Assembly (NCBI GenBank): GCA_002748835.1
Contig: PDTL01000013.1
Coordinates: forward strand, 26,576-90,575
Length of the DNA: 64,000 nucleotides
DNA from: Deltaproteobacteria bacterium
GTDB taxonomy: Bacteria > Desulfobacterota > Desulfobacteria > Desulfobacterales > GCA-2748835
Direction of reading: 5' to 3'
The notes under the pieces were generated by a model, which made no database searches, was not told the origin of the DNA, and was given only the letters and a program-made list of their open reading frames with translations. Each line of letters starts with the position of its first letter. Position 1 is the stretch's first letter. Below are positions 1,150-21,131 of this stretch, one piece after another. A program made the translations under genes and the position numbers.

Positions 1150-1192
1150 TCAACCCCGAGTGGGAAATCTTCAACCCCAACCGGGAAAATCT
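1150..1192. repeat. Tandem direct repeat (21 + 22 bp) in the divergent TonB-receptor/AraC promoter region; candidate AraC-type operator
   Basis: TCAACCCCGAGTGGGAAATCT (1150-1170) is followed directly by TCAACCCCAACCGGGAAAATCT (1171-1192). The blocks TCAACCCC, GGGAAA and TCT are shared. The repeat lies 39 nt upstream of the AraC ATG. Confidence 0.45.
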
Positions 1193-1230
1193 TGTAGCTT
1201 GCTGAAGTAAAAGGAAAATATTATAAAAAG

Positions 1231-2247
1231 ATGAATGACGCTTTTGCGTATTATGAAAAAGAGGGCATGCGGCTTGGTTTTTTGGGGTGTGAAGACCCTG
1301 CTCCGTCCCCTTTTCTTCGTGAAACACGCTTTGAAGTGAACCCGGAGAAGGGAATGGGATGGGGCAAGATGCTCCAGATTAACAGTGGGCTCTATGTGGG
1401 GCTGTCTAATTTTCAACTAAAAGGGCGTCCAGAAACCTTTCATTACCGGTTAATGGCTCCCACGCAGTTCAATATCCTGCTTTCCGGGCATTTTGATTTA
1501 CAGCTTCCGGGGGCGTCACGGCAGACCCTCGGCCCCGGTGCGGTCTGGTTTGGTCATAGCCACCAGGAAGAAATGGTGTACAGTCAGTTCCATGACGATA
1601 CCATCCGCGGGGTTTCCATTGGCCTGCCTGCGCAGTTTGTTGAAACCTGGCTGGGGAATTCCGGAGACGAGACAACGCGGGGATTGGAACGGCTGATTTT
1701 CGGTAAATCAGGTGCCAGCACCGCAAAACGCCACAACTTTTCGCCTTTGGCAGAAGGCATGCTTTCGTCAGCCAGCCTGATGCAAACCGCCAGAAAACTG
1801 ATTCAGGCAGAACATCAGACCCTTTTCGGAAAACTCCATTTTGAATCCCTGGCCCTGGAGCTGTTGGCACAGCTGTTGACGCTGGAAACGGGTCAGAAAA
1901 CTGCCCCGGCAGACGGGTCCTGTAAGCATAAACAAGCCGTTGAGATGGCCGTGGATATTTTGCGTCAGGAATGGGCCTGTCCACCCACCACCTCCTCTCT
2001 GGCAAGGCGGGTGGGGACCAACGCGTGCTATCTGAAAAAGGGCTTTCGCAGCCAGACCGGAAGGTCTATTGGCCAGTATATCCGTGAACTGCGGATGGGC
2101 CGGGCCTTGGAACTGCTGGCCACAGACAGATACTCAATTCTTGAAATTGCCCATGCTGTGGGCTATTCCAATCCAAGCCAATTCAGTGCCGCGTTCAAGC
2201 GGTTTTACGGCAAGACCCCTTCCTTTTATCTCGCTGAAGTGCCATGA
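1231..2247 (+). CDS. AraC/XylS-family transcriptional regulator
   Basis: 338-aa ORF. The C-terminal double HTH is typical of AraC: SSLARRVGTNACYLKKGFRSQTG ... ILEIAHAVGYSNPSQFSAAFKRFYGKTPSFY. It is divergent from a TonB-dependent receptor, the arrangement seen for PchR/YbtA-type regulators. Confidence 0.85.
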   Translation: MNDAFAYYEKEGMRLGFLGCEDPAPSPFLRETRFEVNPEKGMGWGKMLQINSGLYVGLSNFQLKGRPETFHYRLMAPTQFNILLSGHFDLQLPGASRQTLGPGAVWFGHSHQEEMVYSQFHDDTIRGVSIGLPAQFVETWLGNSGDETTRGLERLIFGKSGASTAKRHNFSPLAEGMLSSASLMQTARKLIQAEHQTLFGKLHFESLALELLAQLLTLETGQKTAPADGSCKHKQAVEMAVDILRQEWACPPTTSSLARRVGTNACYLKKGFRSQTGRSIGQYIRELRMGRALELLATDRYSILEIAHAVGYSNPSQFSAAFKRFYGKTPSFYLAEVP

Positions 2248-2383
2248 GTGCCCCTTTTTATCCAGTCTGTATTCTCAGAAGGGATGAAACGGTGAAACGG
2301 CTTATCGCTTACGTCCTTACCCTCTGAAATCTTGATGCAAATCGCCCCATCCCTTCTGAGATCGCTTCAGCATCAGCCCCCAC

Positions 2384-7487: not shown

Positions 7488-8392
7488 GTTAGCTCCATAT
7501 TCATGTGTTTGTGTTTAGGGTAGAAACCTTTCAGGTCATGTAGATGACCGGCAGGCGACAGTCAACTCAGGATAAATGGTTTTTATCGCTTTTGCAAGGA
7601 TCTGGGCCTGGTGCGGAGGATGGGCGCCGTCCTGCCACCCATTGCTGCAGCAGGTAGCCGGCCAGGATGAGTGGCAGACCGGCACCGGTGGACGGCAGGA
7701 TGGGCTCGTGTACGATGAACCGGAGACAGATTGAACGCCGTTGTCACGGTTGACCAGATGGCCACACTGCTGATATCGTAGGCAAATGCTTGGTACTGAC
7801 AGGTCATGGGGCTTCCTGGTTGATGGGGATCACGCTTGTTCGATTTTATATGTCATAGGTCTTGATCGGCGCCTGAGGTTATGTTTAGGTTTGTCTGCTC
7901 ATCGTATCCATTACCGGCGGTATTGTGAAGGGAAAAAATAATATAGGGAAAGACAAGCCGGTGATGTAGCAAAAGAGAGGAGTCAACAGGAAAACATCCT
8001 GCAGTTATGATGGATGCAGAGAATGCGGCCATCGTATAAAAATGGGTCGAATGCTATGATTTGGAATTGATTAAATAATATAGATGCGGTATAGAGGCAT
8101 AAGTCTCTGATAGATGAAAGTGAGAAAATCCTTGTTTTAAGGGCTGTTTGCGAACTATTTTGTCTTCAGGTAACCGGTTTCCGGTCGTTGAGCCGTGCGC
8201 TGGTAAGGCTTGATTGTTTCTGCATTTATCCGTTTAAATCAATCTTGACCCGTGACCCGTTGTTTTGGATGCGGGAAAGAAACGTGTTAGATTGCTTTTT
8301 TTTTCTTGGTTAGCGGGTGGGGATGGTATAAACGAAAATCAACAATTCGTTTTTTTGTTTGTTAACCGATTGATGATAATGAGGTAAGGTGA

Positions 8393-8785
8393 ATGGAATT
8401 TACCCTGGATTTTAACAAACAGCAGATGGAATCAATCGAGAACGTCCTGTCTGAGGAACTGATAGACCTTGGTGTACAGAGCGTTGTTTTGATTGATATG
8501 GCCGGAAACGTCGTCGTCAATATTGACAATGGCCAGTCCAATCATGATGTCTATTCTCTGGCAGCCCTTTCTGCGGCAAATTTCGGGGCTGTAAACGCGA
8601 TCGCAAACTTGATCGGAGAACAGGAATTTTCTCTGCTGTTTCACAAAGGAGAAAAGGGTAGCATCCATTTCAGTAAAGTGACCGAAGACCTCATTCTCCT
8701 GTCTATTTTCGGTAAGGATGTTTCGCTCGGTTTTCTGAGGCTTAAAGTCGGTGAAGCCATTCAACGGATTCAGGCGTTGATCTAA
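8393..8785 (+). CDS. Roadblock/LC7 (MglB-like) protein
   Basis: 130 aa with a Roadblock pattern: GVQSVVLIDMAGNVVVNID ... SLAALSAANFGAVNAIANLIG ... ILLSIFGKDVSLGFLRLKV. A GAGGTAAGG RBS precedes it and it lies immediately upstream of an MglA-type GTPase. Confidence 0.75.
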   Translation: MEFTLDFNKQQMESIENVLSEELIDLGVQSVVLIDMAGNVVVNIDNGQSNHDVYSLAALSAANFGAVNAIANLIGEQEFSLLFHKGEKGSIHFSKVTEDLILLSIFGKDVSLGFLRLKVGEAIQRIQALI

Positions 8786-8852
8786 AGTTGATTACTGTTC
8801 GCCCATGGTATCGTGGGCGGCATTTGGACGATAGCCGCTAGGGGGATCTGCT

Positions 8853-9470
8853 TTGGCGTTAATCAATCCGAAAAAGAAAGAAGTGCAGGTTAAGATCGTG
8901 TACTACGGACCTGGAAGAGGCGGGAAAACGACGAACCTGGAATATATCAATAAAAAATTTAAAAGCCGGATCAAGAGCGAAATGGTCACGGTAAAGACCT
9001 ATAATGACCGGACGCTTTTTTTTGATTTTCTGCCTTTCGATATCGGTGTTATCAAAGGATATACCATCAAGATTCAGTTTTACACAGTGCCGGGCCAGGT
9101 GAAGTATAATGCCACGCGCCGCCTGGTCTTGCGGGGGGTGGACGGGATTGTCTTTGTGGCGGACTCCATGGCACTCAGGCGTGAAATGAACATACGGTCG
9201 TTGCAGAACCTGGCGGAAAACCTGAAATCCTTCAATAAGGATATTTCCAAAATTCCCCTGGTGCTTCAATATAATAAGCGTGATCTTGGAAAAGAGGGAA
9301 TTCCCCTTTTGTCTGTGACGCAGATGGAAGCAGATATGAATGCCAAACTGCGTGTGCCGGCGTTCACTGCAAGCGCTGTAACCGGTGACAATGTTGCGGC
9401 TACCATGAAAAAAATTATTTCCTTGACAGTGATGTCATTGAAAAAACAACTTGATCTGGGGGGCCATTAA
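8853..9470 (+). CDS. mglA: MglA-family Ras-like small GTPase
   Basis: KIVYYGPGRGGKTTNLEYI (P-loop), DRTLFFDFLP (MglA-type switch I with intrinsic Arg), YTVPGQVKYNATRRLVLRGVDGIVFVADS (switch II Gln) and NKRD (G4). TTG start with GGGGGA upstream. The N-terminus aligns with the Myxococcus MglA layout as I remember it. Confidence 0.85.
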   Translation: MALINPKKKEVQVKIVYYGPGRGGKTTNLEYINKKFKSRIKSEMVTVKTYNDRTLFFDFLPFDIGVIKGYTIKIQFYTVPGQVKYNATRRLVLRGVDGIVFVADSMALRREMNIRSLQNLAENLKSFNKDISKIPLVLQYNKRDLGKEGIPLLSVTQMEADMNAKLRVPAFTASAVTGDNVAATMKKIISLTVMSLKKQLDLGGH

Positions 9471-10211
9471 GTGCAAGACACGATGAAAGAGGATCTTGAA
9501 GACCGCTTGGATGCTTTTTTCAAAGATGATGAAGACGAACAGCCGGTACCGCCTTTCGGGGCAGCTCAATCCGAGACCCTTCCCCAAAAGGCCTCTGTTC
9601 CCGAGGGACCGGCTCCGGCAAAAAAAAGTGTCAAGCCGCTCGAAAATTTAAAAGCCGTCATTCTTTCCATGGAGTGGGAAATTAATGATGAGATCATGAA
9701 CACCTTTATTGACGAGGTCAATGTTTTGACTCAGCGATATAAAGGAAATCGCATCTATCAGCTGTTTTTAAAGCTTCATGATTCTATCGGCAAGTATATC
9801 AAAATTAAAAAAGCAGCGGCACATCCGTCGTCGATTCAGTTTCTGAACGGCCTTTTCGAGAGTTTTGAGTCTGTGGTGATGAATCCGGAGCAGAAATCGG
9901 CGGAAGCTGAAAAAATTATTTTAAAAGAAGTCAATAATTTTAAAATGTTGAAGAAGCGGATCCTGCTGTCGAAAGGGGGCGCGATGGAGGCCGAAACCGC
10001 CTCAGCTTCAACATCGTCTGCGCCGGCACCCCCTCCGCCGGTTCCCGCGCAAAAGAAAAATCTGTCTGTTCAGGAAGTCGGGCCGACAGCTAAACAGCCC
10101 TCCTTACATCCCGTCCCTCCGATACCCAGGGAAACGCTGGATTATCTGCTTGAAGAAATCAAGCGAACCATACGCGCTGAACTGGAAAAAGTGGTGCAGC
10201 GTCTGGTGTAG
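9471..10211 (+). CDS. Hypothetical protein (acidic N-terminus, Ala/Pro-rich linker, helical C-terminus)
   Basis: 246-aa ORF that abuts the mglA stop (GTG 9471, alternatively ATG 9483). No motif recognised. Coding is supported by operon position and length. Confidence 0.6.
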   Translation: MQDTMKEDLEDRLDAFFKDDEDEQPVPPFGAAQSETLPQKASVPEGPAPAKKSVKPLENLKAVILSMEWEINDEIMNTFIDEVNVLTQRYKGNRIYQLFLKLHDSIGKYIKIKKAAAHPSSIQFLNGLFESFESVVMNPEQKSAEAEKIILKEVNNFKMLKKRILLSKGGAMEAETASASTSSAPAPPPPVPAQKKNLSVQEVGPTAKQPSLHPVPPIPRETLDYLLEEIKRTIRAELEKVVQRLV

Positions 10212-10307
10212 CCGTTATCGGTGTGATACGTCAGGTTCCGACGCATTTTTACAGAAGAACGCTTCGGGCCATGCGGGATAGATGATAGCTAGACGACACA
10301 CCCCTTC

Positions 10308-10799
10308 ATGGCATGGCAGGGTGGGGAGAAGGAAATGGATGTTTTATCAGGGGATATTTCCGGGCATATTTTCAGGCGGTCGTTGAAAGCGGACCTGGGC
10401 GAGGTGTCTCTGGATCGTCAGATGCTGAATGTGATGATGGAGCTTGACGGAAAAAAAAATGGCGCAGCTATTGCTGCGTCGCTGAATATCAGTTTGGCGT
10501 CACTGAAACAGATTTTGATAAAGCTGATGAAGCTCGATTTGCTTGAATCTGTTAATGCGGCGGTGAAAACCGTTCCGACGGAATTTTGGGTTCAGCTGAA
10601 GAACAGCCTTTCTGAAGCAATGGGGCCGCTTGCCGATCTGATCATTGATGACGAGATATTAGATATGGGCGAACATAAAAGCAGTTTTCCGTTTCACAGA
10701 CTCCCTGAACTGGTGGAGCAGTTGGCGAGACAGATTCCGCGTGAAGAAAAACGGATTGTTTTTCAACAGGCGATGATCCGGCAGATTGCCGGTAAATAA
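10308..10799 (+). CDS. Hypothetical protein with a possible winged-helix segment
   Basis: 163 aa. The segment NVMMELDGKKNGAAIAASLNISLASLKQILIKLMKLDLLESV looks like a wHTH. A better start is ATG 10335, preceded by GGAGAAGGAA. Confidence 0.6.
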   Translation: MAWQGGEKEMDVLSGDISGHIFRRSLKADLGEVSLDRQMLNVMMELDGKKNGAAIAASLNISLASLKQILIKLMKLDLLESVNAAVKTVPTEFWVQLKNSLSEAMGPLADLIIDDEILDMGEHKSSFPFHRLPELVEQLARQIPREEKRIVFQQAMIRQIAGK

Positions 10800-10877
10800 G
10801 ATAGATGATGTGGATTGATCCGGGCAGATAGGCAGCAGCGGTCAAACGGATAAGGATACAAGGCAAGGAGATACTGA

Positions 10878-12107
10878 ATGAGCGTCATTTGCGAAGAATG
10901 CGGAAAAATATATCATATTGACCCCCAGAAACTGAGTGAGAAGATAGGAGACGGTAAAAAGGCCAAGTTTCGATGTCGTGTATGCGATCAGATGATTATC
11001 ATTTCCATGGCGGATGCAAGCGCAGATCCGGAGGAAGGTGCGCCGGCCCCCATCCAGGAACACCGGTTTGCCCCTGTTACGCCCCCCCCTCCCTCAAATG
11101 AATCGGCTTTCCCGACAAGTGATACGGCGAATTCAACGGAATCGCCGGAACAGGATCTAACACCGCCGTCCTCTGCTCCCACGACAGCGAAAATGTCTGC
11201 GCAATCGAAATCTGGCGGCAGCATTGGTCTAAGGGGAAAGATGTTTTTTCTCTTTCTCGTGATTCCCCTGTCTCTCATGGCCGCATCCGGTATTTTTACC
11301 CAGAAGCAGATGGACCGGCTGGCGGCTGATCTGACGGAACAGAGTGCGGAGGTGGTTCGAAAACTGGCGATTGAGACCTTTGCGGAAAGAGCCAGAACCG
11401 TTGCTGCCCAGTGTAGGATTTTTCTGGCCAGCCATCCGGATCTGAACCGGGAAGACTTTAACTATGATATCGAATTCAAGCACATTGCCGTACAAAAGCT
11501 TGGAGACAAGGGGTTTACAATTCTTCTGCAGCGGCCGTCTCAGGAACAAAACTGGATCATCTGGGCACACCCAGATGCGCGAGTTGTGGGCATTGCGGAT
11601 CTTTCCATGCAAAAACGGCTGATGGGCGATAATTTTGATGAGTTTTACAAAGTGATCAACCAGAGCAAGGGCGGCAAGCGTGAGGCCATGGGATACTTTA
11701 CGGAACTCAACAGCGATGGGAGGCGTGATAATTTGTTCATGGCCATTACGCCCATTGAGTTTACGCCGTATATGATCGCGAGCGTCGCCTATCTGGAAGA
11801 CTTTGTTGGCAAGGTACAGACCCTGGAAGCAGATGCTGCCAGGCGGACCCGCACAACCCTGAATATTAACCTGATGATTATCATCGGTTCACTGATTATT
11901 ATCGGGCTGTCGATTACAATTTACGGATATCGCCTCACGCAGAATATTAAACGGTTGACGGATGCTGCTGACAGGATCAGTGTCGGAGAGCTGGATACGG
12001 TGATTGAAATCCGTTCAACCGATGAAATTGGTAAGCTGGCAGAATCGATTTCCAGAATGCAGGACAGCCTGCGGCTTTCCATTGAGCGCCTGAGGCGCCG
12101 CCGGTAG
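10878..12107 (+). CDS. Membrane sensor: MJ0042-type zinc ribbon, Pro-rich linker, TM, periplasmic domain, TM, HAMP; no output domain
   Basis: N-terminus MSVICEECGKIYHIDPQKL ... KFRCRVCDQMI has two CxxC pairs. TM1 is FFLFLVIPLSLMAASGIF, followed by ~190 aa extracytoplasmic and TM2 LMIIIGSLIIIGLSITIYGY. The HAMP region is RLTQNIKRLTDAADRISVGELDTVIEIRSTDEIGKLAESISRMQDSL. The protein ends 12 aa later. Confidence 0.75.
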   Translation: MSVICEECGKIYHIDPQKLSEKIGDGKKAKFRCRVCDQMIIISMADASADPEEGAPAPIQEHRFAPVTPPPPSNESAFPTSDTANSTESPEQDLTPPSSAPTTAKMSAQSKSGGSIGLRGKMFFLFLVIPLSLMAASGIFTQKQMDRLAADLTEQSAEVVRKLAIETFAERARTVAAQCRIFLASHPDLNREDFNYDIEFKHIAVQKLGDKGFTILLQRPSQEQNWIIWAHPDARVVGIADLSMQKRLMGDNFDEFYKVINQSKGGKREAMGYFTELNSDGRRDNLFMAITPIEFTPYMIASVAYLEDFVGKVQTLEADAARRTRTTLNINLMIIIGSLIIIGLSITIYGYRLTQNIKRLTDAADRISVGELDTVIEIRSTDEIGKLAESISRMQDSLRLSIERLRRRR

Positions 12108-12351
12108 GTTATCAGATTTTTTAGGCAACGGTTAAGGCTTACTTCATAAACTCAATGCCATGCCGAATTTGAACTGAATCTTCTGCCTCCGATGTCGGCA
12201 GGCCGGTACGGGCCGGCACCGGCAGGTCAGGTGATACGGGGCTTATTCGGTTTGGTTTGTTGAGGGGAATAGTATTTTTCATCCGAGGCCTGCTTCCGAC
12301 GGGCCTCAGGATGGTGGGCGTCAGATTCCTGGCAGGAGTGAAGGAGAAGGA

Positions 12352-13341
12352 ATGATTATTATTCCTAAAGAAGTACCGATTATTTCCGGATTGAACAGTT
12401 ACTATCTTGATGTGGCGCGCCTTTTTGAGCATTATCAGGGTGTCCTTGATACCTTTTGTGTACACTTTCAGGCACCGGTTTCTGAAGGGGCTGTTTTTTT
12501 TGATGACGAAGGGGTGTTGAATGGTATCTACCACGATAAAAACGGGACGCTCAGGGGACCCAAATCCATAGATTATCTGACCAGTTCACCTGCCGTCAAT
12601 TTTAATGTCTCTGTTTATAAACTGCCTGCAGATCGTGTCTATTACTGGGCAAATTTGCCGAATGCAAAACCACTGTACAAGGATCTGACCACGGAGTTTA
12701 CGGATCTTGAAGGCCTGATTCGTAATCTGACCAGCGACAAGGTAACCGGTTACGTGGATGTAACAATCGACGGCGGTACGAATAACGGATTGATTTTCAT
12801 GCTTTATGGGATGTATATCGGCAGTTATGCCTCCTGGGAGCCGGGGATAATCAAGCGGAGTAAAGATTACCTGGAAACAATGATCCAAAAATCCCGTACT
12901 GGCGGCGGTGTGTTTCACGTGCGGAAAATTAGTTTGTCCAGAAAAGGTATTGAAGATGTACCGTCTGTAGATACCCGGTCGCGTGAGGAAGTTCCCGGTG
13001 AAGTCCTTGCCATGCTTGGGCAGATGCTTGCTATTTTTGAACGGTTGATCAACGGTACGAAAAAGGTAAAAATCGATTTTGATACTGCATTGAAACGTAA
13101 ATTCGTAGAAAAAGTCGATCGGTTCGATTTTCTGGATCCATTTGCCGCAGAGTTCAGATACGCTGAAGGCACGGTCGAATTTTTAGGAGACGCGACATCG
13201 GAAGAACTGGTTCAGGGTGTCATTGAATCGATTAGGGAAATTGCTTCTGAAAACGGCATACTGCCCATACTGGTAAAGCATTTAAATCCTTGGGCCGAAA
13301 AATATGCTGAACTGATCGAGGCATATAACATCGCTATCTGA
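12352..13341 (+). CDS. Hypothetical protein with two PATAN/DUF4388-like segments
   Basis: 329 aa. The segments LDVARLFEHYQGVLDTFCVHFQAPVSEGAVFFDDEGVLNGIY and DLEGLIRNLTSDKVTGYVDVTIDGGTNNGLIFMLYGMYIGSY follow the DUF4388 pattern (l..ll..l...k.tG.l.v......g.i.f..G.i). The domain call is an inference. Confidence 0.55.
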   Translation: MIIIPKEVPIISGLNSYYLDVARLFEHYQGVLDTFCVHFQAPVSEGAVFFDDEGVLNGIYHDKNGTLRGPKSIDYLTSSPAVNFNVSVYKLPADRVYYWANLPNAKPLYKDLTTEFTDLEGLIRNLTSDKVTGYVDVTIDGGTNNGLIFMLYGMYIGSYASWEPGIIKRSKDYLETMIQKSRTGGGVFHVRKISLSRKGIEDVPSVDTRSREEVPGEVLAMLGQMLAIFERLINGTKKVKIDFDTALKRKFVEKVDRFDFLDPFAAEFRYAEGTVEFLGDATSEELVQGVIESIREIASENGILPILVKHLNPWAEKYAELIEAYNIAI

Positions 13342-13438
13342 TGCGACGTTCCGGGAGCGGATGCTGCTTTGCAGCTACAGATCTCCGGCACTAGGTTACG
13401 CCGGGGTCTTATTCCTATTCCTCTGAGAAGGAGCGTGA

Positions 13439-14503
13439 ATGAAAAAGAAAGTCCTGATTGTTGATGATGACAAGGTGTTATTGTCGATTTTAAAAAAGAA
13501 GTTTGCAGGATATGCGGATACGTTTGATGTGATGACAGCCATGGACGGCGTTTCTGCAATACAACTTTTGAAAACGACAACCATATCCATTGTGGTTGCC
13601 GATATCCGGATGCCGCGGATGGACGGATTCGGGCTTCTTTCGTATGTCGCTGAAAATTATCCCGATATTCGTGTCATTATCATGACGGCACATGATATGC
13701 CGAAAACGCAAAATATCGTTCTTAAAGGCGGGGCTGTCGCCTACGTCAAAAAGCCGTTTCAGATTGAAGACCTTTCCCGAAAAATTGTTGCGTATCTGGA
13801 AAAGGAGGCTGAGGGTGGACTGCTGAACAATGCATCGCTGGAGACGTTTATTCAGCTGGTCGAGATGGAGGCCAAAACTTGCACGATTCGCGTATTTAAT
13901 GCTGAATCTAATAAATATGGTGTGTTGTTCTTCATGGAGGGTGACATCCTGGATGCCCGGTACCGGGATTGTAATGGAACAAAAGCGGCCTATGAAATTT
14001 TTTCGTGGAGCCATATTTCCTTGTCCATTGAGAATCACTGCCCATTGAAAGCAAAAAGAATTGACGGAGACCTGCAGGCGATTCTGCTCGAAGCCATGCG
14101 GCTGAAGGATGAGCTGGCGGAACGTGAAGCGGGTATGAAAATCGCAATAGAACGGGTTCCTTTGGAAGAAACGGTTCCTGAGGAACAGAATGCCACTGTT
14201 GACGCCGCTGAACCGCAGACAGCTGACGATGAATCTGAAGGCCTGCTGCTTCGCGTTGCCCAGGCCCTGATCGGCAGAAGCGGTGTCATTGATATTTTTC
14301 ACGATGCGTCGTGGGATCCCCTGGTCAGTAATGTTACGTCGCTGGGAGCGCGATTCGGCGCTAAAAACCTGATGGCATGCTATGTCTGTAAGGGTGAGGA
14401 ACAGGATTATATACTGGTTCCGGATGAAACAACGGTGGTGACTTCTGTCAGCCCCCGGTGTGCGCGGGATAATTTGATCAAGGCGATTACAGATGCGGTG
14501 TAA
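13439..14503 (+). CDS. Response regulator: receiver domain plus PATAN (DUF4388) domain plus C-terminal alpha/beta region
   Basis: Receiver: KVLIVDDDKV ... SIVVADIRMPRMDG ... IIMTAH ... YVKKP. PATAN: SLETFIQLVEMEAKTCTIRVFNAESNKYGVLFFMEGDILDARYRDCNGTKAAYEIFSW. The 393-aa antisense ORF 13490..14671 is rejected. Confidence 0.8.
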   Translation: MKKKVLIVDDDKVLLSILKKKFAGYADTFDVMTAMDGVSAIQLLKTTTISIVVADIRMPRMDGFGLLSYVAENYPDIRVIIMTAHDMPKTQNIVLKGGAVAYVKKPFQIEDLSRKIVAYLEKEAEGGLLNNASLETFIQLVEMEAKTCTIRVFNAESNKYGVLFFMEGDILDARYRDCNGTKAAYEIFSWSHISLSIENHCPLKAKRIDGDLQAILLEAMRLKDELAEREAGMKIAIERVPLEETVPEEQNATVDAAEPQTADDESEGLLLRVAQALIGRSGVIDIFHDASWDPLVSNVTSLGARFGAKNLMACYVCKGEEQDYILVPDETTVVTSVSPRCARDNLIKAITDAV

Positions 14504-14542
14504 CCCGCACCCATACAATTCGAATCGGATGCCCCTAGAGAT

Positions 14543-14923
14543 ATGAAAGACCTGTTTAAACATATTCTGGAAATAGATGAAGTCAAAGGGCTTTACTTTT
14601 TTTATCGGGATGGCGGCCTGATGTTTCACCAGGTGGATGCGGACTGGCGCGCCCGGCTCAATGGACAACAATCAGATGCGCTGTTTGGCACTGCTGAAGG
14701 CTGGAATGCCTTTTTAAATGATTTTTATGGTGTGCAGGAAGCGGAGCTGGTGTTTGAGAATATCCGACTCTATTTCAGGCGGGTGGAAACAGGGGTCGTC
14801 TTTATCCTCCTGGACCCGTACGCGACGGCGGCCATGGCTCGGTTGAATCTTGATATTGCCGTTCCGGCACTGAACAAGGCAAAAAAGACAAAAGGTCTGG
14901 GACGGTTATTCAGACGCCGTTGA
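14543..14923 (+). CDS. Small protein, possibly a second Roadblock/LC7-like module
   Basis: 126 aa. ILEIDEVKGLYFFYRDGGLMFHQV ... ELVFENIRLYFRRVETGVVFILLDPYATAAMARLNL resembles the Roadblock beta-alpha-beta layout, and there is a basic tail. This is a weak motif-level inference. Confidence 0.45.
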   Translation: MKDLFKHILEIDEVKGLYFFYRDGGLMFHQVDADWRARLNGQQSDALFGTAEGWNAFLNDFYGVQEAELVFENIRLYFRRVETGVVFILLDPYATAAMARLNLDIAVPALNKAKKTKGLGRLFRRR

Positions 14924-15053
14924 CCGTTACAGCGATGGTGATCTGGCGATTGAGTGCAGTTTGCAGCGGTGGGGTTCTCGTTTATGCGGGCTTTTAGATT
15001 CTGATATCATCAGGGAACGCTTGATTAACCATTTGAAGGAAAGACGTATCACC

Positions 15054-17567
15054 ATGACTGATCCTTCGGGCAGCACATATGATCTTACAAAGAAAATCAG
15101 TGAGGCTGAAGCCTATTTTTCACATGACTTGCTGAATGAAGCCATTGAAGTGTACGAAGACATTTTGTCTCATGCCAATGCGCTGGATATGGACGCTCAG
15201 CAGGATATAGAATCGCGGATTGAGTCAATTCGGGCGACCTTGGATGACAGGGAAAAATTTGATCAGCAAACCCTGACCTCACAGGATGTTTCCGTGATAA
15301 AGGAAACCTGGTCCAATAAGGAGGAAAGCCCTTCCGAGATATTAGTCAGTGCATCCGCGTTCAAAGAACTGGGCCTTTACATTGAGGCGATCGAGCAGTA
15401 CTTCAAGTTGTTTCTCCATGATCACCCCCCTGCGGATGTCATCAGTAAACTTTCCGAGTGCATCAATGATACGCCGACGCCGAAACTGGCCATCGAACAG
15501 CTGAATGACAGCTTGCGTAAAAGCGGTCTGGATGCCGAAAAGTCATCTGAGATCAAATCAAAGTTAGCCGATATGATCGAACGGCTGGGCAAGAAGGATT
15601 TTGTCCAGAGTCTTTATACCAGTGCCAAAGAGACCCGGGATAAAAAACCGGTACAAAAGAGGCGCCTGCCCAAAGATGGGTTGAAAATTGATACCGGGTT
15701 TGAGGCAGAACAAAAAAGGGCGTCTCGGGACGTTACCGGCCTGAAACTGGAAAAAGATGTGGCCCCGGAAGAAGACCCTGCGGGCCTGCTCGACGACGGA
15801 AAGGTTTATGCCAGCAGATATCAATACCTGCTTGAGAAGGAATTTGTCACCAAAGAGCAGCTTCAAAATTCCCTGGTTAAATCCAAATCCATGAGTAAAA
15901 GTGTGGAGCAGGTGTTGATCGACCTCAACAATGTTGATAAGGATGAGATCGGTAAATCCCTGTCCTTGTTTTATAAATGTAAGTTCAAGACCTTTTCTGA
16001 GAATATGCCCATCCCCTTTGAACTGCTGGGGAAACTCAAAAAAGCGTTCCTGCTTCAGAACTGCTGGGTGCCCATCAACTGGAATATTGCAGAAGGGGTC
16101 GTCGAGGTGTTGATCGATGATCCCATGAATCTGATGAAAACCGATGCCATCTCTGCCTTGATTCAGGCCAAGAAAATCAAATACTGCGTCGGTATTCATG
16201 AAGATATCCAGAAGGTCATCAAGCATTTTTACAGCGAAGATGCCCAGGCCTCGTATCAGGCCTCCTCCGTGAGCGCGGATGCGGGTCTGGATATGGTCAT
16301 GTCGGACATCGACTTTGAAGACGAGGAAGATGAAACTGAATCCCTGGCAGAGGCCAGTGAAGGGGACAGCCAGATTGTTCGCCTGGTGGACCAGGTGCTG
16401 ATTACCGCATACCGGAAAGGGGCGTCGGATATTCATATTGAACCGTCCGTTGTATGGAAACGGGTGGGGATCCGGTTCCGGATTGACGGTGTGTGCCAGA
16501 ATATCCTCCAGTTGCCCCTGTCCAATGCCCGGGCGATCATCTCCCGACTCAAAATCATGAGCGGTCTTGATATTGCGGAGCGGCGGATGCCCCAGGACGG
16601 CAAGATCAAGTTCAAGAAAAAAGGGATCAGACCGTTTGAACTGCGTCTGGCGACCCTTCCCACAGCCGGTGCATTTGAAGATGCCGTGCTGCGTATCCTG
16701 GCAGAATCGGGCGCCATGAAACTGGACGAGATGGGGTTGACCGAACGGAATTTTGAGGTCATGAACCGGATTGTCACCCAACCCTATGGCCTCTTGCTGG
16801 TTGTGGGGCCGACGGGTTCCGGTAAAACAACCACGCTTCACTCGGCCCTGGGGCATATCAATAAGCCCGGTGTCAAGATCTGGACCGCCGAAGATCCGGT
16901 GGAAATTACCCAGGCAGGGCTTCGCCAGGTGGAATGCAATCCCAAGATCGGGCTGGATTTTGCCCGGGTCATGCGCGCGTTTCTGAGGGCGGACCCGGAT
17001 ATCATCATGATTGGTGAGATGCGAGACCACGAAACCGCCTCTATTGGTATTGAGGCCTCCCTCACCGGTCACCTTGTGTTTTCGACCCTGCATACCAACA
17101 GTGCGCCGGAAACCATTACCCGTCTGCTTGATATGGGGCTGAACCCGTTGAACTTTTCAGACGCATTTTTAGGCGTTCTCGCGCAGCGGCTGATCCGTCG
17201 GGTCTGTAAAAAATGTCGGGAACAATATCATCCGTCACCGGAAGCGTTTCAGGATATCTGCGAGCTGTTCGGCGGAGAAGAGAAACTTGCGGAACAGGGG
17301 GTGGAGTACACTGAGGATATAACGCTATACCGACACAAGGGCTGTGACGAATGCAACCAGACCGGATACCGTGGCCGGATGGGGATCCATGAAATGATGG
17401 ACGGCACTCCGGAAGTGAAAAAGATGATCAAACGCAGTGCTGCAACAGATGAAATGTTCCGTCAGGCGGCGTCCGACGGGATGCTGACCCTGATTCAAGA
17501 TGGTATTTTAAAGGTGTTTCAGGGACATTCGGATATTGAAGAAGTCCGGCGTGTGGTTGTGAGCTAA
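15054..17567 (+). CDS. PilB/GspE-family secretion ATPase with ~300-aa N-terminal helical/acidic extension
   Basis: T2SSE_N-like region (FVTKEQLQNSLVKSKSMSKSVEQVLIDL ... VEVLIDDPMNLMKTDAI). Walker A is LLVVGPTGSGKTTT, with Asp/His boxes (IIMIGEMRDHETA, GHLVFSTLHTN). A tetracysteine is present (CKKCREQY ... GCDECNQTGYRGRMGIHE). The start is placed at ATG 15054 (GAAGGAAAG upstream). The track ORF opens at TTG 14961. Confidence 0.85.
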   Translation: MTDPSGSTYDLTKKISEAEAYFSHDLLNEAIEVYEDILSHANALDMDAQQDIESRIESIRATLDDREKFDQQTLTSQDVSVIKETWSNKEESPSEILVSASAFKELGLYIEAIEQYFKLFLHDHPPADVISKLSECINDTPTPKLAIEQLNDSLRKSGLDAEKSSEIKSKLADMIERLGKKDFVQSLYTSAKETRDKKPVQKRRLPKDGLKIDTGFEAEQKRASRDVTGLKLEKDVAPEEDPAGLLDDGKVYASRYQYLLEKEFVTKEQLQNSLVKSKSMSKSVEQVLIDLNNVDKDEIGKSLSLFYKCKFKTFSENMPIPFELLGKLKKAFLLQNCWVPINWNIAEGVVEVLIDDPMNLMKTDAISALIQAKKIKYCVGIHEDIQKVIKHFYSEDAQASYQASSVSADAGLDMVMSDIDFEDEEDETESLAEASEGDSQIVRLVDQVLITAYRKGASDIHIEPSVVWKRVGIRFRIDGVCQNILQLPLSNARAIISRLKIMSGLDIAERRMPQDGKIKFKKKGIRPFELRLATLPTAGAFEDAVLRILAESGAMKLDEMGLTERNFEVMNRIVTQPYGLLLVVGPTGSGKTTTLHSALGHINKPGVKIWTAEDPVEITQAGLRQVECNPKIGLDFARVMRAFLRADPDIIMIGEMRDHETASIGIEASLTGHLVFSTLHTNSAPETITRLLDMGLNPLNFSDAFLGVLAQRLIRRVCKKCREQYHPSPEAFQDICELFGGEEKLAEQGVEYTEDITLYRHKGCDECNQTGYRGRMGIHEMMDGTPEVKKMIKRSAATDEMFRQAASDGMLTLIQDGILKVFQGHSDIEEVRRVVVS

Positions 17568-17622
17568 CAAAGAGACATCGCTTTTCATGGGATGCGCAGG
17601 CACAGGTGGTGGAACGGGAACC

Positions 17623-18096
17623 ATGGACAGAATATTTGTAAATGATGAGTTAAATGCGACATTTGTCTGCCCGAAGTGCGGCACCTCCCGAACGGCAAAT
17701 GTGGCGAAATTTGTGGCCCATGAAAAAGAGGTACGCATCCGGTGCAAGTGTAAATGCGGACACCGGTACCCCATTACTCTTGAGCGGCGTAAAAATTTCC
17801 GGAAGCCGGTCAATTTTCCGGGTATGTATTATTATGGACCGTCGTTTTCCGAAAAAGGTCTGATGACTATCCTTGATCTGTCAAACCACGGAGTCAAAAT
17901 CCGTCTGAACGCGAGGCCGACGTTTTCTGAAGGAGACCAGATCCGGATCGAATTTAACCTGGATGACCGCGAACGGAGCCAGGTGGTCCGGGACGTCCGG
18001 ATAAAGAGTATTCAGGACCGGGACCTAGGCCTTGAATTCACGTCGCCTGCTGCGGATAATATTCTGAGAACCTACATTTTTATCAGCAACCGCTGA
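17623..18096 (+). CDS. Zinc-ribbon plus PilZ-domain protein (putative c-di-GMP receptor)
   Basis: FVCPKCGTSRT ... RCKCKCGHRY forms a Cys4 ribbon. The PilZ signatures RRKNFR (RxxxR) and DLSNHGVKI (DxSxxG) follow. The start is taken at ATG 17623. The track ORF begins at 17587. Confidence 0.75.
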   Translation: MDRIFVNDELNATFVCPKCGTSRTANVAKFVAHEKEVRIRCKCKCGHRYPITLERRKNFRKPVNFPGMYYYGPSFSEKGLMTILDLSNHGVKIRLNARPTFSEGDQIRIEFNLDDRERSQVVRDVRIKSIQDRDLGLEFTSPAADNILRTYIFISNR

Positions 18097-18103: not shown

Positions 18104-18703
18104 CTAACCCCGATACCGCACTTTTACCTTAAAGCGGGCCTTCCATTCAATCCACAGGGGCAGAAGCAGGGAGAGTGCCTGCGGACCGAGCTGTTGTGTG
18201 GACGACAGCGACGCGATCAGGGCTTCTGCACCTTGTGCCGCGTATGGGATGATGAGGCTTTCTTTCTGTTGGGCCAGAGACAGGCAGTCGAGCAGATCCT
18301 TTCCGGGTACCATGATATGCCGTCCCAGTCCGGGGCGGACATTTTTAAAGGACCAGGGGCTGTCTGCCGATACGGGGATGTCAAAGGTATCCAGGGGCAC
18401 CTGACGGTCACGCAGTTTCTCGGGCCAGGCTGCGCCTGGGGCATAGGCAAGCAGCATGGGCGGGATGGAAACCCGGCGCGTGGGACGTCCATTCTGGTTG
18501 AACTGGGGCGATCTGAGAATCAGCGCCGGATCCGTGTACAAGCGGGCAAGCCGCTCAATCAACGGGTCTGGTGAGGATTGATCAGCGGACAGTACATCAT
18601 GGCTCACCACAGTGAACCGGCGGTCAAGACCTTTGCGATCTCTCTTGATCAGGGTCAGGTAACTCTCAGAAATGGTTTCCTGTGTTATACCAACTAAAAA
18701 CAT
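18104..18703 (-). CDS. Hypothetical protein (199 aa), last gene of the dynamin-like operon
   Basis: Long ORF with no recognisable motif. It lies 88 nt downstream of the membrane-protein gene on the same strand. Its stop is only 7 nt from the converging PilZ stop. Confidence 0.55.
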   Translation of the reverse strand: MFLVGITQETISESYLTLIKRDRKGLDRRFTVVSHDVLSADQSSPDPLIERLARLYTDPALILRSPQFNQNGRPTRRVSIPPMLLAYAPGAAWPEKLRDRQVPLDTFDIPVSADSPWSFKNVRPGLGRHIMVPGKDLLDCLSLAQQKESLIIPYAAQGAEALIASLSSTQQLGPQALSLLLPLWIEWKARFKVKVRYRG

Positions 18704-18791
18704 AGGCTAAACCCATCGTTGAACGGTGATCAGGGGGATGGCTGAATCCGGAATCTGACACGGCAAGGGGTCTTGCTGGCTTCATCCATCG

Positions 18792-19553
18792 CTATTCGGT
18801 TGTCTCAGTGTCTGTAACCGGTGCCGGCCTGCCGGTAAGTGACGTTCGTTCCGGTGCCCCGGCCAGCCGCTCCGGAAGCCTGCGGATATCCACGGGAACA
18901 CCGTCGGAACGGATGGCGGTATGATCATTGAGAAAGACCATCCCCATTTTATCCATGACATCCCTGCGATAGGCATATTTGAGATCCAGCTCCTGCTTTT
19001 TCAGCTTGTACTGGCTCACGAGAAAGATGATCCCGCCGATGAATCCGCCGGCAAGAAGGATCGCCCCTGTGATGCCGATGTAGGTCAGGGATTTCCCGCC
19101 CAGACCGGCAATCAGCGAAAGGATGACATCCAGCTTGTAGAATATGATGGCCAGCCCCACCAGCACCAGCAGCAGAAAAAGATAGGGCGCATGCTGAAGG
19201 ACCCGTTTCAACTGTCGCCACCGGCCCTTCACGCCGCCGGCCGTGTCCGGGGTGCTGGAGATGTCCACACCGGAGATCGGCTGGCTGTTGTACAGGTAGG
19301 TGTTGAAGCCGACGATGACAATACCGAGCAGAAAGGTGATGAAGATGGGCACGGTAAAGGCGGCAAAAAAATAGGCCTTCCAGGGAAAGGGCATGTTGTA
19401 GGGTTCTAACTGACTGAGAAAACTGATCAGGAAGATGAAGACTTCAATGATCGTAATGAAAATCAGGTAGCCTTTGAAGTATCCCTTGAGTTCAATCTGA
19501 TCGAACAAAGAGGCAATGCCGTTGTGCCGGGGCGCATGTTCAGGGTGTGTCAT
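18792..19553 (-). CDS. Integral membrane protein (about 4 TM helices)
   Basis: 253 aa with hydrophobic spans: YLIFITIIEVFIFLISFL, AYFFAAFTVPIFITFLLGIVIVGF, APYLFLLLVLVGLAIIFY and ITGAILLAGGFIGGIIFLV. Its start is 4 nt after the stop of the dynamin-like gene. Confidence 0.7.
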   Translation of the reverse strand: MTHPEHAPRHNGIASLFDQIELKGYFKGYLIFITIIEVFIFLISFLSQLEPYNMPFPWKAYFFAAFTVPIFITFLLGIVIVGFNTYLYNSQPISGVDISSTPDTAGGVKGRWRQLKRVLQHAPYLFLLLVLVGLAIIFYKLDVILSLIAGLGGKSLTYIGITGAILLAGGFIGGIIFLVSQYKLKKQELDLKYAYRRDVMDKMGMVFLNDHTAIRSDGVPVDIRRLPERLAGAPERTSLTGRPAPVTDTETTE

Positions 19554-19557
19554 GGAC

Positions 19558-20940
19558 TTATGCTTCTTCTTCCGGCAGATTGGAGAGCTCGCTTAATGCC
19601 TCGCGGATATCCCGGGCGCCTTCATCCCTGACCGCGCAGACCCAGCCGTGCTCCAGCTTGACACTGCCCATGGCGTATTTCCCCTTGGTTTTGGCAAGAT
19701 AGTCTCTTGCCAGCTGCCGGACAGCGGCCCAGGTATCCTTGCGGTACTGGGTATCCAGCAGGGTGAGATCATCCAGGTTTTCGAGCTGTTTTGCATGAAA
19801 TTTGTCGCTGCTGAACGTGAAGGGGACCAGCAGCCAGAAGAGAAATATCAGGACGCCAGTGCCGCCGCTGATCATGGAGAGCAGTATCAGATCCGGCACC
19901 AGGCCCAGAAACATGAGCACCACCGTCAGGGTACCGGCGGAAAGTATACTGATGAGAAAACCGATGAGAGAGAATTTGGCCCGGAACCCCTGCAGCCGTT
20001 TCCGGTAGCTGATCAGGGCTTCGAGAAAATGGGCCAGGCGCTCGCTGTGGGTTTCCACAAAGGTCGCCATATGATCCAGTTGATGCCGGGGCGCAACCAG
20101 GATGGCTTTTTTCAGTTCTTCCCGCTGATTATCCAGATATTTCAGATAGGCCTGATCCTTACCTGTTTCGTGGGTGGCATGGGGGGAATAGGTCAGGTGG
20201 ATCATGGGGATATCTTTGCGGCCGGTCATCTGGGAAAGATTCCAGCAAAAGGTGCCGTAGACACGGATCAGGTCAACCAGAGACGCGCATTCATCCACCC
20301 GGTTCAGGACAAAGAGAATCCGGTCTTCAAAGGTCTGGCGGGGCAGGGTTTCCCTCAGGCTCTCGTGCGCTTCCCGGCCCGTACCGGCCTTGTGCGGGTC
20401 AAACAAGACAAGGATCAGGGCCGCGTTTTTGGCGAAATCGCCGATCACCTCCTGATAGTCATACCCCCGTTCCCGCTCAGAGATGCTGTCGAGCATACCC
20501 GGCGTGTCGATGAGGGTCAGTTCTTTTAAAAACGGGGAGTTGACTTTTTTGAGGCAGAAATGGGCGGCAAATCGCTGGCCGTGTTTTTTCAGGTGCGCGT
20601 ACGGGTATTCGGGATCATGGATCAGCGAGTTGCCCTCCCGGGTTTCCATGAGCCTTATCGGTTCTCCTTCGGGCAGGCTGTCGTCATAGGTGAGCACCGT
20701 AAACGAGTCATCTGTCGGCGCCTGACCGGTTGCCTGGATCTGGGTGCCGAGAAGTTCGTTGATCAGGGTTGATTTTCCCGAGGAGTAGTTCCCGATGATC
20801 AGCACCTGGGGCTGCCACTTGATGCTTGATTCCAGGGGCGTGTCCGCATACCGGTATTTCAGCGCCACGGGTGTGAGGCACTTTTCAATCATTTCGAGGA
20901 TTTCGTCTTTCAGGGAATGGTAATAATTGTCTCGATACAT
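19558..20940 (-). CDS. Dynamin-family GTPase with C-terminal transmembrane hairpin
   Basis: G1 is LIIGNYSSGKSTLINELLG, G3 is IDTPG and G4 is NRVD. The C-terminal hydrophobic hairpin is FSLIGFLISILSAGTLTVVLMFLGLV ... GGTGVLIFLFWLLVPFTF. The start is chosen at ATG 20940 (AAGGAC upstream). The track ORF opens at 21033. Confidence 0.75.
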   Translation of the reverse strand: MYRDNYYHSLKDEILEMIEKCLTPVALKYRYADTPLESSIKWQPQVLIIGNYSSGKSTLINELLGTQIQATGQAPTDDSFTVLTYDDSLPEGEPIRLMETREGNSLIHDPEYPYAHLKKHGQRFAAHFCLKKVNSPFLKELTLIDTPGMLDSISERERGYDYQEVIGDFAKNAALILVLFDPHKAGTGREAHESLRETLPRQTFEDRILFVLNRVDECASLVDLIRVYGTFCWNLSQMTGRKDIPMIHLTYSPHATHETGKDQAYLKYLDNQREELKKAILVAPRHQLDHMATFVETHSERLAHFLEALISYRKRLQGFRAKFSLIGFLISILSAGTLTVVLMFLGLVPDLILLSMISGGTGVLIFLFWLLVPFTFSSDKFHAKQLENLDDLTLLDTQYRKDTWAAVRQLARDYLAKTKGKYAMGSVKLEHGWVCAVRDEGARDIREALSELSNLPEEEA

Positions 20941-21131
20941 GCCGTGTGTCCTTAGAACTGTCGCAAACGTTGATAAGCCACGGAACTTTCCGGATAATTT
21001 AAAATATATAGTATAATCCTCACGCAAAGGCAATATTCAACTGGGGAATGGATTCAGGGGTTGTCAAATCCCGGGATCCGAATTACATACTCTGCTGTGT
21101 GGAATCTGAACAGAAGAGGTCGTTACGAGAT

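Follow-up and report, generated by a model that had tools for sequence, protein, structure and literature searches.

The subject of this report is a cluster of ten genes, referred to as g1 to g10, on the plus strand of a 64,000-nucleotide (nt) stretch from a Deltaproteobacteria bacterium of the order Desulfobacterales (contig PDTL01000013.1, positions 26,576 to 90,575). The whole stretch is called the window, and the cluster occupies its positions 8393-18096. On balance, the cluster is probably a conserved signalling module of the Desulfobacterales type in which, by analogy, an MglA/MglB GTPase switch, PATAN adaptors and, here, cyclic di-GMP (c-di-GMP) acting through a PilZ protein would gate a dedicated PilB-type ATPase serving a pilus machine encoded elsewhere. 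The first nine genes are co-inherited in fixed order, and the predicted catalytic and ligand-binding motifs of the cluster are intact. Pairwise links between MglA/MglB and PATAN, between PATAN and PilB, between PilZ and PilB, and from MglA through a TPR effector to PilB are already in the literature; what is new is their combination and the TPR fusion.

Conservation of the gene order

On the plus strand, ten open reading frames (ORFs) follow one another with gaps of 0-244 nt, and the long antisense ORFs across the same positions are shadow frames. An earlier note on this DNA, made from the sequence alone, had described ten same-strand genes separated by short gaps. The ORF map agrees with it, as does the public gene call on identical DNA (Logan SRR6011892; NCBI metagenome-assembled genome, tags CSA22_015xx), which gives the same ten genes (CSA22_01560 is g6 and CSA22_01570 is g8). 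The likely starts of g3 (9483), g4 (10335), g9 (15054, ATG) and g10 (17623) are taken from public gene calls and orthologue alignment; the resulting N-terminus of g9, MTDPSG..., agrees with the N-termini of its orthologues.

Relatives were collected with the family profile of g6, the marker of the cluster, against one genome per GTDB species; matches occurred in 133 genomes, and 80 loci were retrieved. The carriers are nearly all Desulfobacterales, Desulfobacteraceae, Desulfococcaceae, Desulfosarcinaceae, Desulfatiglandales, Desulfonema and Olavius symbionts. A named species, Desulfatiferula olefinivorans, is a carrier known from a separate look-up. In tblastn comparisons with the ten window proteins, the cluster genes present are colinear and on a single strand in all 83 related loci. 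All nine genes g1-g9 are recovered in 31 of the 43 loci with room on both sides; in most of the remaining well-flanked loci, a single gene, small and divergent, escaped detection at the tblastn threshold applied. The best-conserved gene is g2 (67-86% amino acid identity to relatives); the corresponding values are 51-77% for g1, 24-42% for g3 and 25-38% for g8. According to precomputed Pfam annotation the flanking genes vary among genomes, which argues that the cluster is a discrete module. Conservation of the neighbourhood in relatives had been set beforehand as a test of the earlier reading, and the order g1-g9 was found to be kept between differing flanks.

These data also bear on the possibility that the genes were brought together by chance or form a mobile or defence island. 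Such an origin would suit the G+C content of the cluster, which is 48.9% against 55.3% in the remaining window. However, a lower G+C is also seen in 31 of 36 relatives, with a mean offset of ~2 points, and an offset that is both small and recurrent fits vertical inheritance. Moreover, the colinearity of all 83 loci, which belong to different species, is counted as refuting the proposal, and no repeats, tRNA or integrase were noted beside the cluster. No relevant PADLOC matches were obtained; a defence island was rejected as a candidate, the only matches being generic P-loop similarities of g9 to mad8 and mad3 (E 7e-6 or weaker). A chance assembly or island is therefore regarded as hardly credible.

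Two sub-types can be distinguished. In type A, which comprises 27 loci with the window among them, g7 directly follows g6, and the ATPase gene g9 is followed by one or two PilZ genes. In type B (52 loci), a PAS-PAS-HisKA gene lies between g6 and g7, and rsmG follows the ATPase gene. PilZ proteins account for 17 of the 24 ORFs tested 3′ of the ATPase, mostly in type-A loci. The PilZ gene g10 is an accessory gene of sub-type A, and the ten-gene unit proposed earlier is reduced to a conserved core of g1-g9, since PilZ follows the ATPase in one sub-type only.

The genes that vary between loci (designated below by L numbers) are of one general kind. The type-B insert (L006, 5298-6326, and 26 further loci) encodes ~345 amino acids (aa) with the conserved H-box GGVAHxLNQPL and apparently without HATPase_c; it may serve the REC-PATAN protein as a kinase-less partner in phosphotransfer or as its phosphatase. 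Six loci (L017, 14131-17808; L022, L026, L033, L043 and L055) carry a ~1000-aa hybrid histidine kinase (PAS-GAF-PAS-HisKA-HATPase-REC) between g8 and g9. The same interval of L062 (12540-16031) holds a metallophosphatase, a Ser/Thr kinase with an Lcl_C domain and a second REC-PATAN protein, and in one locus an adenylate/guanylate cyclase follows PilZ. All of these variable genes are signal-input proteins, and none is a pilus part.

The ATPase and its TPR-like extension

The product of g9 is a PilB/GspE-family hexameric ATPase (Pfam T2SSE 1.2e-119, MshEN 8.2e-9). From the N-terminus it comprises a TPR-like extension (residues ~1-225), a window-specific insert of ~38 aa, the MshEN/N1 domain, the N2 domain and the ATPase core with zinc-binding Cys pairs. 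The expected motifs are in place: Walker A at 585, EDPVE (Asp box) at 613, Walker B at 649, the His box at 671, CKKC at 718 and CDEC at 764. The protein scores below the equivalog cut-offs both for PilB (TIGR02538, 497 bits against 675.65) and for GspE (TIGR02533, 470 bits against 630.25). The PilB model is covered almost completely (positions 4-563 of 564), starting at residue 288 of the 868-aa ORF. The best matches in the PDB are PilB of Geobacter and Myxococcus; Geobacter PilB 5tsg reaches 363 bits, Thermus PilF 343 and Vibrio GspE 342. By inference, a true deltaproteobacterial PilB orthologue would be expected to lie clearly nearer to Geobacter PilB than to Vibrio GspE. By these scores g9 is neither a standard PilB nor a standard GspE and represents a distinct clade.

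The N-terminal extension is conserved throughout the family. It measures ~255 aa here and ~215 aa in orthologues, which corrects the ~300 aa estimated earlier. An hhalign comparison of the g9 family profile with the designed consensus TPR protein CTPR3 gave a match of 91% (E 1.1e-6) over 108 columns, 107-218 in the numbering of an 848-aa form, consisting of three contiguous repeats; there is a further, isolated repeat, and a second match spans 23-143. Control comparisons with reversed profiles, column-shuffled profiles and other families did not exceed 0.5%. The Pfam TPR models gave no match on g9. The wording "TPR-like" is used because these models are silent and the AlphaFold2 model of the N-terminus, described below, is poor. 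A phmmer search with the extension found 175 proteins among 1.84 billion cluster representatives. In nearly all matches listed the similarity begins no more than ~20 residues from the N-terminus, and the full-length ones have 770-795 aa. Given these 175 matches and their N-terminal position, the extension is considered a hallmark of the g9 ATPase clade.

In the MshEN domain, the site of the c-di-GMP motif reads RYQYLLEKEFVTKEQLQNSLVKSK, and both Gly residues of the 24-residue reference motif, RLGxx(L/V/I)(L/V/I)xxG(L/V/I)(L/V/I)xxxxLxxxLxxQ, are replaced family-wide. The motif is thus degenerate in g9, and an input of c-di-GMP is more likely through the separate PilZ protein.

No second PilB/PilT-like ATPase gene occurs within 10 kb in the 80 loci. 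The ATPase had been called an orphan; this is correct for the locus and is established at that level only. The 64-kb window contains no PilT gene, its scanned ORFs include no member of the T2SSF, secretin or PilMNO families and no GspD or GspF, and none of its frames carries a prepilin signature. The earlier statement that pilus and secretin genes are absent is accordingly right for the window ORFs scanned and for the all-frame prepilin scan. To our knowledge, no function of a PilB-family ATPase is known without a platform protein. Since no platform is encoded in the cluster, the machine served by g9 is probably encoded elsewhere, and the description of the module as "self-contained" is not supported.

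It might be argued instead that g9 is the ordinary and only PilB of the cell, relocated from pilT/pilC to a site beside its regulators and driving a standard type IVa pilus that has no other ATPase. The best PDB matches, the full PilB architecture and the intact catalytic motifs agree with this explanation, and a pilus locus at another place on the 220-kb contig or in the genome would be compatible with everything in the window. However, g9 falls far short of the PilB cut-off and is nearly as GspE-like as it is PilB-like, both by equivalog score and by the PDB matches (363 against 342 bits). It also bears a family-specific extension, no pilT-like or second pilB-like gene accompanies it within the 10 kb of the 80 loci, and five genomes hold g1-g8 without it. 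A relocated ordinary PilB is rather unlikely.

A more radical alternative is that g9 powers no pilus and is the motor or remodelling engine of another apparatus, or a nucleotide-dependent signalling hub, with MglA and the PATAN proteins as its control system. This would be in keeping with the lack of filament, platform and secretin genes in the window and the flanks examined, with a clade that lies below both equivalog cut-offs and has a unique conserved N-terminal extension, and with the conservation of g3, the C-terminal domain of g6 and g8, which are without solved relatives. Against it stands the general knowledge of the family, in which each characterised PilB/GspE-type member acts on the polytopic platform of a type IV filament machine, whereas the sole membrane protein of the cluster, g5, has two transmembrane (TM) helices. 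Furthermore, MglA, PATAN and PilZ are known to act on genuine PilB. A function away from pili is considered unlikely. Hardly different in probability, and if anything slightly lower, is a more specific proposal in which the TPR-fused g9 would not assist the ordinary type IV pilus but would drive an apparatus or process of its own under MglA control, with g3, g4, g6, g8 and g5 as the other parts. The Desulfobacterales would then possess a self-contained GTPase-controlled machine of a so far undescribed kind.

The GTPase switch and the accessory proteins

Profile searches upheld nearly all of the domain calls made earlier. The product of g1 matches Robl_LC7 in Pfam (1.6e-8, 34.6 bits against a cut-off of 23) and, in the PDB, MglB of Myxococcus xanthus (6h5b, E 1.2e-14) and of Thermus thermophilus (1e-8). 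It stays under the NCBIfam equivalog for Thermus-type MglB (58 against 200 bits). It is the probable GTPase-activating protein (GAP) partner of g2, which matches MglA in the PDB (6h17, E 4.4e-53) over residues 1-198. The nucleotide-binding motifs of g2 are G1 GPGRGGKT, DRT at 52-54 with the intrinsic Arg, G3 TVPGQ at 78-82, G4 NKRD and G5 SAV. Group-1 MglA proteins are distinguished by an intrinsic Arg finger beside the G2 Thr and by TVPGQ as G3 (PMC4316618, Wuichet and Sogaard-Andersen 2014). Because it has this Arg and TVPGQ, g2 is assigned to Group 1, and the position of g1 67 nt upstream agrees with the cognate MglB expected for that group. A second MglA paralogue, 55-56% identical to g2, is found ~4 kb upstream of the main cluster in L002 (Desulfatiferula olefinivorans, 514-3686) and L012 (~1562-2161). 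In L002 it is followed by a protein with PATAN and cNMP-binding domains and then by a PilZ protein, forming a smaller GTPase-PATAN-PilZ set.

The product of g6 consists of domain A (~11-113), domain B (~119-192) and a helical C-terminal domain (216-329). Its family numbers 842 homologues, uniform at ~327 aa. An AlphaFold2 model based on 85 sequences (mean pLDDT, the confidence score, 87.7) shows one alpha/beta domain followed by another and then by a helical C-terminal domain. The window protein alone has no Pfam match; at relaxed thresholds, 57 of 85 family members reach DUF4388/PATAN (best E 1.9e-5) and 15 of 85 the archaeal DUF2226. By hhalign, A matches B at 79% (E 1.7e-5), B matches the PATAN domain of g7 at 59% (E 9.5e-5) and A matches the latter at 23%, with reversed g7-PATAN comparisons at or below 0.3%. 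An all-against-all comparison of the ten undivided families gave weak signals only and became informative after g6 and g7 had been split into domains and controls added. This family-level evidence supports g6 as a divergent double PATAN-like protein, as the earlier note had suggested. No solved relative was found by the family profile against PDB sequences or by fold. With the model as query, Foldseek recovered nothing from the PDB at E ≤ 0.001, the best being sliding clamps at 1.1e-3, and TM-scores were ~0.12.

The response regulator g7 is recognised by Response_reg (7.3e-25, 87.7 bits) and DUF4388 (3e-11, 43.9 bits against a cut-off of 25), and all active-site residues of its receiver are present (D10/D11, D55, T83 and K105). 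Its C-terminal ~90 aa (14220-14503) align with the g8 family by hhalign at 11.7% (E 0.0025; reversed 0.5%), and a g8-like module may be fused to this response regulator too. The small protein g8 has no Pfam or NCBIfam match. With its family profile, the top seven PDB matches are all dynein light chain Roadblock, with the N-terminus in register, at E 0.1-0.5. It ends in a conserved basic tail, KGLGRLFRRR here and KGxGRFFKKK in the family, which possibly binds a membrane or a partner.

The PilZ domain of g10 is recognised at 3.8e-9 (37.3 bits against a cut-off of 22.5). It contains RKNFR (RxxxR) at 56 and DLSNHG (DxSxxG) at 85, preceded by the cysteines of a four-Cys zinc ribbon (CPKC at 16, CKC at 41). 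From these motifs, g10 is predicted to be a c-di-GMP receptor.

Three further genes, g3-g5, complete the conserved set. The g3 protein is present and colinear in 53 of the 58 loci with upstream room. Neither the single protein nor its family profile matches anything in Pfam, NCBIfam or the PDB. The g3 protein consists of an N-terminal acidic motif (RLDxFF; family RLDDLFG), a disordered linker, a ~110-aa helical core (LSxxWEIxDE...AHPD) and a C-terminal helix, and in the family the linkers between the conserved parts are variable. The acidic motif, EVExRLDDLFG in the family, could be a short linear ligand, for example of TPR repeats. The g4 protein appears as PF26309 (DUF8082) in the precomputed Pfam tables of four loci. 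Since 41 of 46 family members match HTH_47 (best E 6e-6), the winged helix-turn-helix that had been called possible is correct; MarR, TrmB and IclR-type families of the same fold are also matched. A few g4 relatives weakly match the eukaryotic NPR2 and NPRL3 helix-turn-helix families of the Rag-GTPase GAP complex GATOR1. The GATOR1 proteins NPR2 and NPRL3 likewise pair longin/Roadblock-type domains with small GTPases, and the matches are probably generic winged-helix similarity.

Hydropathy identifies g5 as the sole membrane protein of the ten. It contains, in order, a cytoplasmic zinc ribbon (1-43; Zn_ribbon_4 3.2e-5), a Pro/Ser-rich linker, TM1 (122-140), an extracytoplasmic domain of ~190 aa, TM2 (330-348) and a HAMP domain (351-399; 1.5e-12). 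It stops 10 residues past HAMP, and no HisKA or HATPase_c was found in Pfam and NCBIfam scans. In the family the zinc ribbon is nearly invariant and the linker is not conserved.

Table 1. Annotated features of the cluster and of the region preceding it (positions in the window).
Feature	Position	Strand	Basis
Intergenic region upstream of g1, probable promoter region (905 nt)	7488-8392		ORF map
g1, MglB-type Roadblock/LC7 protein, 130 aa	8393-8785	+	Robl_LC7, MglB structures
g2, Group-1 MglA small GTPase, 205 aa, TTG start	8853-9470	+	PDB MglA match, G motifs
g3, unknown protein, 242 aa	9483-10211	+	family alignment
g4, DUF8082 protein with N-terminal winged-helix-like domain, 154 aa	10335-10799	+	PF26309, HTH_47
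g5, membrane sensor without output domain, 409 aa	10878-12107	+	Zn_ribbon_4, HAMP, hydropathy
g6, double PATAN-like protein, 329 aa, cluster marker	12352-13341	+	family-level PATAN similarity
g7, response regulator: REC 5-116, PATAN 127-226, ~90-aa C-terminal domain	13439-14503	+	Pfam
g8, small protein, possibly Roadblock-like, 126 aa	14543-14923	+	family-profile PDB matches
g9, PilB/GspE-family hexameric ATPase, 837 aa	15054-17567	+	T2SSE, MshEN
TPR-like N-terminal extension of g9	15054-15728	+	hhalign against CTPR3
g10, zinc-ribbon and PilZ protein, 157 aa	17623-18096	+	PilZ Pfam, motifs

Proposed mechanism and points against it

In the favoured model, MglB would drive the GDP/GTP cycle of MglA, with g8, g3 and g4 as possible co-regulators or scaffolds and the membrane protein g5 possibly acting as a site-defining receptor. 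MglA-GTP would bind the TPR-like N-terminus of g9, just as it binds the separate TPR protein SgmX in Myxococcus. The PATAN domains of g6 and g7 would bind the MshEN/N1 region of g9, as is the case for PilB1 of Synechocystis, and phosphorylation of the g7 receiver would tune this binding. In type A, c-di-GMP-loaded PilZ (g10) would add a third input, comparable to the action of PilZ on PilB in Xanthomonas. Once licensed, the g9 hexamer would dock on a type IV pilus-type platform encoded elsewhere, leading to filament assembly at a defined place and time.

Several observations weigh against this model. Every interaction step in it is proposed by analogy. At the locus, PilC/GspF, PilM, pilin and secretin genes are lacking, and no platform genes appear in the flanks of five loci in precomputed Pfam tables. 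Transcription as one unit is not favoured by the 244-nt gap between g5 and g6 or by promoter and terminator scans of the cluster, which gave results at chance level. The AlphaFold2 model of the N-terminal 435 aa of g9, built on a two-sequence alignment, has a pLDDT of 43.7, and g9 reaches 21 bits with NF053729, where the cut-off is 38, in line with its degenerate MshEN motif. For the phosphorylation input proposed earlier, the window encodes no kinase for g7 in cis; in relatives, the cluster includes a PAS-PAS-DHp protein or hybrid kinases. By hhalign, g8 scores 15.9 with the g1/MglB family, and shuffled profiles reach 20.4. The second Roadblock protein of the earlier note keeps its seven best PDB matches, all of them Roadblock, but their E values are poor and the similarity to MglB is no better than that of shuffles. 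Lastly, in 5 of the 43 well-flanked loci g1-g8 occur without the ATPase within 10 kb (L003, L020, L063, L068 and L075), which indicates that switch and motor are separable. The genes that follow in these five loci are unrelated. In L003, g8 is truncated or divergent, and L047 (CP070694) keeps only g5-g7. A 773-aa ORF after g8 in L075 was considered as a replacement ATPase and rejected, being an unrelated thioredoxin/DsbH-type protein.

The loci without ATPase also invite the explanation that g1-g8 serve polarity or positioning in general, with pole identity, gliding, division or another organelle as the main target, and that the ATPase is one client of several. Some carriers are gliding Desulfonema, and MglA of Myxococcus has several effectors, in gliding as well as in pilus function (PMC11135422, PMC11580455). 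Nevertheless, by far the most loci of either sub-type have the ATPase gene next to the others, and this holds even where a hybrid kinase has been inserted ahead of it. In addition, the TPR extension is confined to the g9 clade, which argues for co-adaptation of the ATPase with the module. A general module with the ATPase as one client among several is improbable, and a dedicated, MglA-gated PilB-type ATPase is preferred.

Comparison with known systems

Three precedents established by experiment underlie the favoured model, and the cluster holds a counterpart of each. In Myxococcus, MglA-GTP recruits SgmX, a protein with 14 TPR repeats, and SgmX in turn guides PilB to the pilus machine, "by an unknown mechanism" (PMC11580455). 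This M. xanthus MglA/MglB-SgmX-PilB system (PMC7519303, PMC7668184, PMC11580455) shares with the cluster a Group-1 MglA and the MglB that acts as its GAP; in both, a TPR element and a PilB-type extension ATPase form the output end. M. xanthus MglC is a possible parallel to g8 as a second Roadblock-type protein. The M. xanthus genes, however, are scattered over the genome, with PilB encoded beside pilT/pilC and SgmX as a 14-TPR protein in its own right, whereas here a single cluster has the TPR-like repeats fused to the ATPase. The PATAN proteins and the HAMP sensor, unlike in M. xanthus, are integral here. Relatives of RomR, RomX, FrzS and SopA were not recognised in the cluster, although no search was aimed at them.

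PatA-type regulators of Synechocystis bind through their PATAN domain to the N-terminal domain of PilB1, the PATAN domain being sufficient for output, and the co-occurrence of PATAN with GspE_N was noted in 2021 (both bioRxiv 10.1101/2021.06.11.447907). The cyanobacterial proteins PixG, PilG, PixE and LsiR (bioRxiv 10.1101/2021.06.11.447907; PMC11181946) resemble g7 in combining a receiver with PATAN and in being genetically linked to a PilB-type ATPase with MshEN/GspE_N. They differ in that the domain order is reversed in g7 (REC-PATAN), which has an extra C-terminal domain, and in that no CheA/MCP operon is present here. Also unlike cyanobacteria, the cluster has a receiver-less double-PATAN protein, g6, and a coupling to MglA/MglB. 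The occurrence of MglA/MglB genes near PATAN genes was noted in 2006 and 2014 (PMC4316618).

Control of type IV pilus assembly by PilZ, PilB and in some cases FimX is described for Xanthomonas and Pseudomonas (PMC5595344; Guzzo 2009 and Llontop 2021 as cited in PMC11580455), and in Xanthomonas PilZ binds PilB. Xanthomonas and Pseudomonas share with the cluster a small PilZ protein encoded beside a PilB-type ATPase and presumably acting on it. The Xanthomonas PilZ protein is not known to carry the c-di-GMP motifs and needs FimX. In g10, RxxxR and DxSxxG are intact and a zinc ribbon is fused; g10 is not accompanied by FimX and is restricted to sub-type A. With the c-di-GMP-binding ATPases of the MshE/PilB2 type, g9 has the MshEN domain in common, with the difference that its motif is degenerate.

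Two other systems offer weaker analogies to the first half of the cluster. In the actinobacterial conservon CvnA-D (PMC4316618), a HAMP membrane sensor, a Roadblock protein, a small winged-helix-like protein and an MglA-family GTPase stand together, much as in g1-g5. The conservon differs in its Group 2 GTPase (no intrinsic Arg, NxFD in G4), in CvnA being a complete histidine kinase and in the lack of PATAN and ATPase, whereas g2 belongs to Group 1 and g5 is kinase-less. GltJ of the Myxococcus gliding machine (PMC11135422) is, like g5, a membrane protein whose cytoplasmic part has a zinc ribbon and then a long disordered linker, and it too belongs to an MglA/MglB system; in GltJ, ribbon and linker form a switch operated by MglA/MglB. 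Unlike GltJ, g5 has no GYF domain and no conserved motif in its linker. A GltJ-like MglA-binding motif in the g5 linker was considered and rejected: the linker is unconserved, and g5 matches the GltJ zinc ribbon (7zok) without significance, at E 1.1.

Full-text literature searches yielded no description of this cluster, whether counted as nine genes or ten, nor any of DUF8082 or of an mglBA operon that includes a PilB fused to TPR, in agreement with the earlier statement that no characterised system has such a composition. Nonetheless, the cluster is not categorically new, because its recognisable parts belong to known families and its logic matches known systems.

Upstream region and other genes of the window

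In the intergenic region before g1, promoter-like plus-strand sites were seen at 7750-7779 and 7983-8011, not above chance, and no sigma-54 promoter was found upstream of g1, matches being at chance level. A conserved Shine-Dalgarno sequence, AAGGGGT, lies 5′ of the g1 ATG. No Rfam family, whether riboswitch or other known RNA, was detected upstream of g1 or elsewhere in the window. Type-A relatives have a T-rich tract and a TTGATT-N17-TAAnnn element ~100-140 nt before the g1 ATG. The element occurs in L004, L023, L028, L029, L034, L035, L039, L045, L046 and L083 and resembles a sigma-70 promoter that has an UP element. The 905-nt region of the window shows no evident copy.

Upstream of the cluster, the window encodes an AraC regulator, a beta-CASP nuclease, a radical-SAM protein, a hydrolase and DUF2780. 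Downstream, past opposite-strand genes, there are CinA, fatty-acid and ETF genes, a Mur ligase and others. The opposite-strand genes at 18104-21033, convergent with the cluster, encode two family-less proteins (199 and 253 aa) downstream of a dynamin-like GTPase (Dynamin_N, MMR_HSR1). This GTPase and the two unknown proteins do not adjoin the cluster in the other loci examined. Farther on, one ORF of 5480 aa on the plus strand (46686-63128) contains at least four DUF11 repeats in its first 3000 aa, as well as a Cna-B-like "GramPos_pilinBB" domain and an alpha-2-macroglobulin MG10-like stretch; by its domains it resembles a giant surface adhesin.

Biological significance

In a single compact, operon-like unit that is inherited vertically, the cluster would combine three known controls of PilB, namely the small GTPase with TPR, the PATAN adaptors, and PilZ together with c-di-GMP. 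It bears on the question of how SgmX and MglA-GTP engage PilB (PMC11580455) and on that of how PATAN acts on cyanobacterial PilB. As a minimal co-evolving set of proteins, it predicts direct contacts between MglA and the TPR region, between PATAN and N1 and between PilZ and the ATPase. If the reading of a separate MglA-gated apparatus were true, g9 would be a "Rosetta-stone" fusion, pointing to MglA-type GTPases that act on PilB-type ATPases directly via TPR repeats. Moreover, the analysis defines conserved families to which no function has been assigned, i.e., g3, DUF8082, the double-PATAN protein and g8.

We know of no information on polarity or pilus regulation in anaerobic sulfate reducers. 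In this regard, the module would extend MglA-based spatial control to these organisms, here the Desulfobacterales, with gliding Desulfonema and the symbionts of gutless worms among them.

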